Assembly (NCBI RefSeq): GCF_003334785.1
Contig: NZ_QOWV01000002.1
DNA length: 64,000 nt
Source of the DNA: Escherichia coli
GTDB lineage: Bacteria; Pseudomonadota; Gammaproteobacteria; Enterobacterales; Enterobacteriaceae
Reading direction: 5' to 3' (one strand)
A model generated the notes under the pieces. The model was not told the DNA's origin, did not search any database, and saw nothing but the letters and a program-made list of their open reading frames with translations. Of the stretch, positions 49,652-52,600 are shown one piece after another; position 1 is the stretch's first letter, and every line of letters begins with the position of its first letter. Made by a program: the position numbers and the translations under genes.

Positions 49652-52600
49652 ATGCGGATTATCTTTCTACGCAAGGAGTATTTATCTTTACTCCCGTCAA
49701 TGATTGCATCTCTTTTCTCTGCTAACGGTGTCGCGGCGGTCACTGATTCATGCCAGGGATATGATGTCAAAGCGAGTTGTCAGGCCAGCAGGCAAAGCCT
49801 TTCAGGCATTACGCAGGACTGGAGTATCGCTGATGGGCAATGGCTGGTTTTTTCGGATATGACCAATAACGCCAGCGGTGGGGCCGTATTTTTGCAACAA
49901 GGAGCGGAATTTTCACTATTACCAGAAAATGAAACTGGAATGACTCTGTTTGCCAATAACACCGTTACAGGAGAATATAATAACGGCGGGGCCATATTTG
50001 CTAAAGAAAACTCAACGCTGAATCTTACTGATGTTATTTTTTCCGGTAACGTCGCAGGCGGCTATGGTGGCGCAATCTATTCTTCTGGTACTAACGATAC
50101 TGGTGCCGTCGATTTACGTGTCACTAACGCCATGTTTCGCAATAACATCGCTAATGATGGCAAAGGTGGCGCAATTTATACCATTAATAATGACGTTTAT
50201 TTAAGTGATGTTATTTTTGATAACAACCAGGCATATACATCAACAAGTTACAGTGATGGCGATGGCGGGGCAATCGATGTTACCGATAATAATAGCGACA
50301 GCAAGCATCCTTCAGGTTATACGATAGTAAATAACACTGCCTTTACAAATAACACTGCCGAAGGTTATGGCGGGGCGATATATACCAATAGCGTGACGGC
50401 TCCCTATCTTATTGATATTTCTGTTGATGACAGCTACAGCCAGAACGGAGGCGTGTTAGTCGATGAGAACAATAGCGCAGCAGGCTATGGAGATGGTCCT
50501 TCCTCTGCGGCGGGTGGCTTTATGTATCTCGGCTTAAGTGAAGTTACCTTTGATATTGCCGACGGAAAAACGCTGGTTATTGGCAATACAGAGAATGACG
50601 GAGCTGTTGACTCTATTGCTGGTACCGGGTTAATCACCAAAACAGGTTCCGGCGATCTGGTACTTAATGCAGATAACAATGACTTTACTGGTGAGATGCA
50701 GATTGAAAACGGTGAAGTTACCCTGGGCCGCAGCAACTCCCTGATGAATGTCGGCGATACGCATTGCCAGGACGATCCGCAAGACTGCTACGGTCTGACG
50801 ATAGGGAGTATTGATCAGTATCAGAATCAGGCTGAGCTAAACGTTGGCTCGACCCAACAAACTTTTGTGCACGCATTGACGGGCTTTCAGAATGGCACTT
50901 TAAATATCGATGCTGGTGGCAACGTTACTGTTAATCAGGGCAGTTTTGCTGGCATCATCGAAGGTGCTGGTCAGCTCACCATTGCGCAAAACGGCAGCTA
51001 CGTGCTGGCAGGGGCGCAGTCGATGGCGCTAACCGGCGATATAGTCGTTGATGATGGTGCGGTGCTTTCGCTGGAAGGCGACGCGGCAGATCTTACCGCT
51101 CTCCAGGACGATCCGCAGTCGATCGTGTTAAACGGCGGTGTGCTCGATCTCTCTGATTTCTCCACCTGGCAGAGCGGCACATCATACAACGATGGCCTTG
51201 AAGTCAGTGGCAGCAGCGGAACGGTTATCGGCAGTCAGGATGTGGTAGATCTTGCAGGTGGCGACAATTTGCATATCGGCGGCGACGGGAAAGATGGCGT
51301 CTACGTGGTGGTCGATGCGAGCGACGGGCAGGTAAGTCTGGCAAACAATAATAGTTATTTGGGCACAACACAAATCGCCTCCGGTACGCTGATGGTGAGC
51401 GACAACTCGCAGCTTGGAGATACCCACTATAACCGCCAGGTTATCTTTACCGATAAGCAACAAGAAAGCGTGATGGAGATTACCTCCGACGTTGACACGC
51501 GTTCAGATGCGGCAGGCCACGGACGTGATATTGAAATGCGCGCCGACGGTGAAGTGGCAGTTGATGCGGGGGTAGACACGCAGTGGGGCGCACTGATGGC
51601 TGACAGCAGCGGGCAGCATCAGGATGAGGGTAGCACATTGACTAAAACGGGGGCTGGTACACTGGAGCTGACCGCCAGCGGTACAACGCAGTCGGCGGTA
51701 CGTGTCGAAGAAGGCACCCTGAAAGGTGATGTTGCTGATATCCTTCCTTATGCTTCGTCACTGTGGGTTGGTGATGGGGCAACGTTCGTTACTGGCGCGG
51801 ATCAGGATATTCAGTCAATTGATGCTATTTCCAGCGGCACTATCGACATCAGCGATGGTACGGTTTTGCGCCTGACCGGGCAGGATACTTCCGTCGCCCT
51901 TAATGCCTCACTATTTAACGGCGATGGGACGCTGGTGAATGCCACCGATGGTGTGACGTTGACAGGTGAGCTTAATACCAACCTTGAAACTGACAGCCTG
52001 ACTTATCTTTCCAACGTGACGGTTAATGGCAATCTGACCAATACGTCCGGTGCGGTTAGCCTGCAAAATGGCGTCGCTGGCGATACGCTGACGGTAAACG
52101 GTGATTATACCGGCGGCGGTACGCTACTGCTCGATAGCGAATTAAACGGCGATGACTCGGTAAGCGATCAATTGGTGATGAACGGTAATACTGCTGGCAA
52201 CACAACTGTGGTGGTTAACTCCATTACAGGGATTGGTGAGCCGACATCGACAGGCATTAAAGTGGTTGATTTCGCAGCTGATCCCACGCAGTTTCAAAAC
52301 AATGCGCAGTTCAGTCTGGCAGGCAGCGGCTACGTCAATATGGGAGCGTATGACTACACGCTGGTGGAAGATAACAACGACTGGTATCTGCGATCGCAAG
52401 AAGTAACGCCGCCATCGCCACCTGATCCAGACCCGACTCCCGATCCTGATCCCACGCCGGATCCTGATCCAACACCCGACCCGGAACATACGCCTGCTTA
52501 CCAGCCGGTGTTGAATGCCAAAGTTGGCGGTTATCTCAATAACCTGCGGGCGGCAAATCAGGCGTTTATGATGGAGCGACGCGATCACGCAGGTGGCGAT

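Follow-up and report, generated by a model that had tools for sequence, protein, structure and literature searches.

Length variation of an in-frame proline-rich spacer in the Escherichia coli autotransporter YfaL: old alleles and, probably, rare slippage

In pertactin of Bordetella pertussis the repeats R1, (GGXXP)n, and R2, (PQP)n, were reported to differ in copy number between isolates (PMC3279416), and in TibA a 'proline-rich domain' (residues 627-677) was described that lies between junction region and membrane domain (PMC3835316). In the present study a Pro-rich stretch of YfaL was analyzed, an AIDA-I-type (type Va) autotransporter adhesin encoded in a 64-kb stretch of Escherichia coli DNA (the window, by which the whole stretch is meant), assigned by a recent classification to adhesin group 8 (PMC9289746) and known to raise biofilm formation when expressed constitutively (PMC3764049). 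An earlier note on this DNA had pointed to an in-frame repeat of the hexapeptide PDPDPT in the linker between passenger and beta-barrel, able to expand or contract without disruption of the gene. We consider it probable, at roughly 80%, that this linker is a slowly slipping in-frame Pro-X spacer between the autochaperone and the helix of the barrel, the length variants of which are mostly old alleles, with slippage as a rare event.

The likeness to the described systems is partial in each case. YfaL shares with pertactin the in-frame, Pro-containing tandem repeats of a type Va autotransporter and an isolate-dependent copy number, the unit length being a multiple of 3 and the copy number differing on unchanged flanks. 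However, the repeat motifs are unrelated, the main alleles of YfaL are old and tied to haplotypes, and variation in pertactin was linked to allele shifts of the vaccine era, for which YfaL offers nothing comparable. TibA is likewise of the AIDA-I type, and its Pro-rich segment is found between the junction or autochaperone region and the membrane-embedded C-terminal domain, which is the position it takes in YfaL. The domain has about 50 residues in TibA against 29 in YfaL, and the likeness is one of position. The TibA region has reportedly been examined functionally by Cote & Mourez in 2011. AIDA-I itself (structure 4MEE) has an autochaperone end, a helix and a 12-stranded barrel homologous to those of YfaL, but its connection is short and not Pro-rich where YfaL has a 29-residue Pro-X stretch. 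Phase-variable simple-sequence contingency loci, finally, change via slipped-strand mispairing at tandem repeats, as YfaL probably does. Their units, however, are numerous and identical, with lengths that cause frameshifts or change the spacing of a promoter, and the loci switch at high rates, whereas the three units of YfaL are degenerate, have a length divisible by 3 and change rarely.

The gene and the stretch in question are placed as follows (nt, nucleotides; aa, amino acids; CDS, coding sequence; ORF, open reading frame).

49652..53404, + strand: yfaL (ehaC) CDS, AIDA-I-type (type Va) autotransporter adhesin, 1250 aa (from the ORF listing and the RefSeq annotation of matching loci)
52409..52495, + strand: Pro-rich spacer PPSPPDPDPTPDPDPTPDPDPTPDPEHTP, aa 920-948 (from translation and composition)

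As a query, the 401-nt repeat region was found at one place per genome in 5,420 of 5,426 complete E. coli genomes (at megablast sensitivity), and gene conversion from paralogues is an unlikely source of alleles given this single place. One match out of the 5,420 is on a record that bears the label of a plasmid instead of a chromosome. The earlier note had proposed a comparison of copy number across E. coli genomes, with an invariant number as the result that would speak against it; the length was not invariant, and ten linker length classes were found (-168, -36, -24, -18, -12, -9, -6, 0, +6 and +18 nt relative to the window), all of them in frame. Their shares were estimated from three systematic samples of 60 rows each, evenly spaced down a ranking (180 rows in total), and are listed here with the linkers of fetched alleles.

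Same length as the window: 116 of 180 rows (64%)
-18 nt: 41 of 180 rows (23%); fetched linker ...PDPDPDPTPDPDPTPDPIP
+6 nt: 12 of 180 rows (7%); fetched linker ...PDPDPTPDPDPTPDPDPTPEPAPDPTP
-24 nt: 6 of 180 rows (3%); fetched linker ...PDPDPTPDPTPDPEPTP
-12 nt: 1 of 180 rows (<1%); fetched linker ...PDPDPTPDPDPTPDPAPDPTP
-9 nt: 1 of 180 rows (<1%)
Partial or other: 3 of 180 rows (2%)

These shares agree with the numbers of genomes within 95% of single alleles, which were 2,416 for the window allele, 1,217 for the -18 allele L009 and 1,139 for the B2-type allele L005. Twenty alleles were fetched and translated, each being in frame and annotated as an intact CDS, so that the claim of in-frame expansion and contraction without gene disruption was borne out by nine lengths other than that of the window, between -168 and +18 nt. 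In the E. coli alleles that were fetched, the differences are confined to the Pro-rich stretch between gap-free flanks, the only exception being one deletion that begins upstream (allele L011, see below). All indels observed are multiples of 3 and, save one 9-nt deletion, also of the 6-nt sub-unit, and changes by a single Pro-X dipeptide (6 nt) occur as often as those by full units of 18 nt. The flanking haplotypes of the main length classes differ at 13-40 of 455 nt, and the classes are thus old alleles and not recent events. A search of a limited paper collection brought up no description of linker polymorphism in YfaL.

Several length classes at appreciable frequency (about 64%, 23%, 7% and 3%) could also be expected if linker length were adaptive, i.e., if it set the reach of the passenger through O-antigen or capsule, or varied an exposed epitope under immune or phage pressure, as has been suggested for the repeats of pertactin, and if selection kept the classes. 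Preservation of the Pro-X pattern, while synonymous sites vary freely, fits this explanation, as does pertactin, in which variation is found mainly in the repeats (GGXXP)n and (PQP)n (PMC3279416). Surface polysaccharides are known to mask short autotransporter adhesins (PMC8286834), in the light of which the display-distance idea of the earlier note may, by analogy, be taken as a reasonable background. However, the classes follow flanking haplotypes and no obvious serotypes, since K-12, O157:H7, O145 and the B2 strains CFT073 and Nissle all have the length of the window, and the differences are small, amounting to 2 to 12 residues. Moreover, YfaL is cryptic in laboratory strains. Its biofilm phenotype was seen with yfaL under a constitutive promoter (PMC3764049), which likewise counts against adaptive length, and we regard this explanation as unlikely.

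PDPDPT is encoded three times in frame by codons 924-941 (nt 52421-52474) of the yfaL ORF 49652..53404, at the place and in the gene given by the earlier note, and is followed by a degenerate fourth unit.

52421..52438, + strand: repeat unit 1, CCTGATCCAGACCCGACT (PDPDPT), 13/18 identical to units 2 and 3
52439..52456, + strand: repeat unit 2, CCCGATCCTGATCCCACG (PDPDPT), contains GATCCT
52457..52474, + strand: repeat unit 3, CCGGATCCTGATCCAACA (PDPDPT), 15/18 identical to unit 2
52475..52492, + strand: degenerate unit 4, CCCGACCCGGAACATACG (PDPEHT, from translation)
52488, + strand: substitution C->A in codon 946, CCT (Pro) to CAT (His), sole difference from strain 2452 in 4,201 nt

Three exact copies of a hexapeptide cannot be random, and the repeat is not due to chance. 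The description as a perfect in-frame nucleotide repeat holds with regard to frame and peptide, but not to the DNA, and the 18-bp units cannot be called near-identical, for in pairs they agree at only 13, 13 and 15 of 18 positions (72-83%), with all differences synonymous and in third codon positions. Tandem Repeats Finder accordingly reported 70% matches and a score of 63 for the array, with an 18-nt unit and a 6-nt sub-period. When the same peptide was re-encoded 100,000 times using the codon usage of yfaL itself, a summed unit identity of 43.2 +/- 2.2 was expected against 41/54 observed; the DNA periodicity is thus fully explained by the peptide repeat, and the window allele carries no sign of a recent duplication. 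The simulation gave no evidence that the units are less alike than expected, as under selection against slippage (P(sim <= obs) = 0.23). A further explanation, namely that length classes are selected, to suit the thickness of a strain's O-antigen or capsule layer or to vary an epitope, and that synonymous differences between the units of the common allele serve to lock a favoured length against slippage, appears quite unlikely to us.

The fourth unit reads PDPEPT in every other fetched sequence that has it, and Pro946His breaks the alternating-Pro pattern of the linker. The A at 52488 was carried by no hit in searches of the 5,426 complete genomes, the best match always showing one mismatch, and may stem from a sequencing error or from a mutation private to this strain. 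A stretch of 54 nt contains five GATC (Dam) sites (at 52424, 52442, 52448, 52460 and 52466), the window average being 4.1 per kb. As a regulatory feature this cluster was rejected, because it is explained by Asp-Pro codons (GAT-CCN) at the usual GAT frequency of the gene, and it is probably a by-product and not a signal. An antisense ORF (52142..52588, - strand, 148 aa) that spans the repeat and lies wholly within yfaL was likewise dismissed as a gene, as nothing supports it.

Recent events were sought by searching the genomes with synthetic slippage products of the window haplotype, and the following pairs of direct repeats proved relevant.

52442..52470, + strand: 11-nt exact direct repeats GATCCTGATCC at 52442 and 52460, each with an internal 6-nt period
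52278..52457, + strand: 12-nt direct repeats CTGATCCCACGC at 52278 and 52446, bounding the 168-nt deletion of allele L011 (from alignment)

A gain of 18 nt (L014) was found in CFS3246 and in 'strain 35', records of equal length that probably represent one strain; the 18 nt GATCCTGATCCCACGCCG are duplicated exactly, which results in four PDPDPT units. Loss of the GATCCT of unit 2 (-6, L015) occurs in six genomes of porcine enterotoxigenic E. coli (ETEC), and its duplication (+6, L016) in one genome, WP2-S18-ESBL-08. These three products show 0 differences from the window over 476 flanking nt, and their junctions lie inside the 11-nt repeats GATCCTGATCC, the longest exact direct repeats of the array, which are likely the substrate for slippage of +/-6 and +18 nt. 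Unit 1 was lost in one genome, UTME-3 (-18, L013), with five flank differences. In strain VTB97022v (NZ_CP178670.1, L011) an in-frame deletion of 168 nt, equivalent to 52278-52445 of the window, takes away the last part of the autochaperone together with one and a half repeat units from the start of the array, the CDS still being annotated as intact. Altogether about 11 of some 1,950 genomes with the window haplotype (about 0.5%) have a derived length, which corresponds to at least five events, and the window length is retained at >=99% identity in about 1,940.

Tandem in-frame structure and slippage products on identical flanks are also what would be seen at a contingency-type, hypermutable repeat with frequent length heterogeneity within single populations. 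This is, however, very unlikely, given that the units of the window are just 72-83% identical, that the longest exact repeat has 11 nt, and that against some 11 derived genomes stand the roughly 1,940 with unchanged length, many independent laboratory and outbreak lineages among them. On/off switching is impossible with units of a length divisible by 3, and neither a tract of identical units nor high variability among close relatives is present, so that yfaL does not have the properties of a phase-variable locus.

A sister allele has near-identical units. This -18 family possesses two units, GACCCAACACCCGATCCT and GACCCAACACCCGATCCA, which are identical at 17 of 18 positions. A synthetic one-copy version of this allele matched 14 genomes at 99.7-100% and a synthetic three-copy version 3 genomes at 100%, beside 464 two-copy genomes within 99% of L009; related backgrounds presented further one-copy and three-copy forms, the latter on a second background as well. 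Derived copy numbers thus amount to about 3.5% in the -18 family versus about 0.5% on the window haplotype, and such a several-fold difference is the pattern expected if slippage depends on the similarity of the units. The two allele families can be regarded as a small natural experiment on synonymous divergence between units as a factor that lowers slippage.

Since some of the variants are singletons (+6 in WP2-S18-ESBL-08, -18 in UTME-3 and -168 in VTB97022v), it might be argued that the rare forms are artefacts of assembly or sequencing and that the repeat is an incidental effect of composition without real polymorphism. Yet the array is shorter than 100 nt, so that single sequencing reads can span it, the -6 form is present in six assemblies, the one-copy form in 14 and the three-copy form in 10, each of the major classes is found in hundreds to thousands of genomes, and the indels, one 9-nt deletion apart, are exact multiples of 6 nt. 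This explanation is hardly credible.

With regard to the position of the spacer in the protein, the flanking elements were delimited as follows.

52031..52363, + strand: autochaperone AC_1, final folded part of the passenger, aa 794-904 (Pfam PF18883, E 1.3e-18)
52517..52561, + strand: predicted alpha-helix, pore-spanning linker helix, aa 956-970 (AlphaFold model residues 167-181)
52616..53335, + strand: autotransporter beta-domain, outer-membrane barrel, aa 989-1228 (Pfam PF03797, E 1.2e-34)

The Pfam model of the pertactin C-terminus overlaps AC_1 (aa 811-914) and ends directly upstream of the repeat, and passenger-associated repeats (PATR) were matched in YfaL at E 4e-4 and 4e-3. In the spacer 15 of 29 residues are Pro. 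The closest solved structure, the AIDA-I transport unit 4MEE, was aligned to aa 808-1244 (E 9.7e-36), and the Pro-rich stretch came to lie opposite gaps in this alignment, which makes it an insertion with respect to AIDA-I. The AlphaFold model computed for aa 790-1250 (from a 12-sequence alignment, mean predicted local distance difference test (pLDDT) 85.7, predicted template modelling score (pTM) 0.80) shows beta strands up to aa 919, then coil, the helix and a run of long strands (model residues 197-460); aa 920-948 are without secondary structure at a pLDDT of about 47-52 and form the sole low-confidence segment of that kind. That such a helix sits in the pore is the general architecture of autotransporters (PMC9289746). 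Pfam domains on either side, the gaps against 4MEE and the predicted coil concur in placing the spacer between autochaperone and pore-spanning helix, in agreement with the assignment to the linker between passenger and barrel. The N-terminus MRIIFLRKEYLSLLPSMIASLFSANGVAAV looks, by eye, like a signal peptide.

Distant relatives were sought in a protein search with the C-terminal 461 aa; as only the 8,000 word-richest candidates were scored, the hits were mainly fragments and near-identical entries of E. coli and Shigella, with few distant relatives, eight of which span the linker and were used. At 28-38% identity (sequences named by their source as Citrobacter and Yersinia among them) all of these have a Pro-X stretch at the linker position, after a conserved WYL(R/S/T)(S/T) motif and before the helix begins, very different in length and wording, e.g., TPDPDPDPNPGPDPDPNPEPDPDPNPGPAPQP and PDPTPDPTPG. 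Judged from these proteins, a Pro-X linker is a fast-changing trait of the family. The same search brought up dozens of partial YfaL entries of Shigella sonnei (within P0024-P0117), cut where contigs of about 1.9 kb end, which suggests that repeated elements, for instance insertion sequences, interrupt or flank yfaL in S. sonnei. A 445-aa metagenome fragment (P0009) is without the last part of the autochaperone as well as the entire linker (…GAYDYT|PAYQPVLN…), either by a large natural deletion or as an assembly artefact.

At the level of the locus, the ORF is orthologous to the annotated yfaL at a conserved chromosomal position, in the order nrdA-ypaB-yfaL-ubiG-gyrA in strain 2452, which differs from the window by 1 mismatch in 4,201 nt around yfaL; many other genomes do likewise, and the RefSeq name at matching loci is 'AIDA-I family autotransporter adhesin YfaL/EhaC'. 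With a query that reached into the flanks of yfaL (49400-49651 and/or 53405-53600), a median of 26 matching places per genome was obtained, so that at least one intergenic flank has a dispersed repeat, which is probably similar to repetitive extragenic palindromic (REP) elements. The array described here is one of only two in the window with a Tandem Repeats Finder score of at least 50; the other (46494-46662, 87-nt period, 1.9 copies, 96% matches) has a look of REP elements or bacterial interspersed mosaic elements (BIME) and lies, as judged from colinearity with strain 2452, between nrdB and nrdA.

Taken together, a mechanism may be proposed in which the spacer joins the autochaperone to the helix that plugs the barrel and probably forms an extended stalk just outside the membrane. 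The Pro-Asp and Pro-Thr dipeptides impose a 6-nt sub-period and an 18-nt period on the DNA and with them short exact direct repeats, between which replication slippage would occasionally gain or lose 6 or 18 nt, only in-frame products persisting. The window allele, with synonymously diverged units, changes rarely, and the sister allele with near-identical units more often. Gains and losses of the size of a unit thus probably originated by slippage, and differences of a few residues would be nearly neutral and matter little. The extended form assumed for the spacer is that suggested by its composition and by the model. In a polyproline-II helix each residue contributes 3.1 A. With this geometry 29 residues would reach up to about 9 nm, and natural spacers of about 17-35 residues about 5-11 nm.

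Several points weigh against this reading. The mutation rate is derived from standing variation only, and events were tallied directly and not on a genome phylogeny; some shared variants, e.g., that of the six porcine ETEC genomes, probably go back to a single event. Recombination could have moved variants between backgrounds. Near-neutrality of length is an assumption, and as nearly all of the sampled and fetched genomes keep a linker of at least about 60 nt, a constraint on minimum length may exist. The extended conformation, moreover, is based on composition and low AlphaFold confidence and not on a solved structure.

Variation of the linker is hence real, but ordinary and slow, and an instance of a well-known phenomenon; its importance is modest, and it leaves the understanding of autotransporters unchanged. 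For typing, the linker offers a simple length marker that follows the haplotypes of yfaL. The C-terminal part of YfaL, aa 786-1250 with the spacer included, serves as an anchor for surface display of enzymes (PMC7138890), and for such use it is worth knowing that natural spacers of about 17 to 35 residues occur in genes annotated as intact and that the near-perfect repeats of some alleles are less stable.

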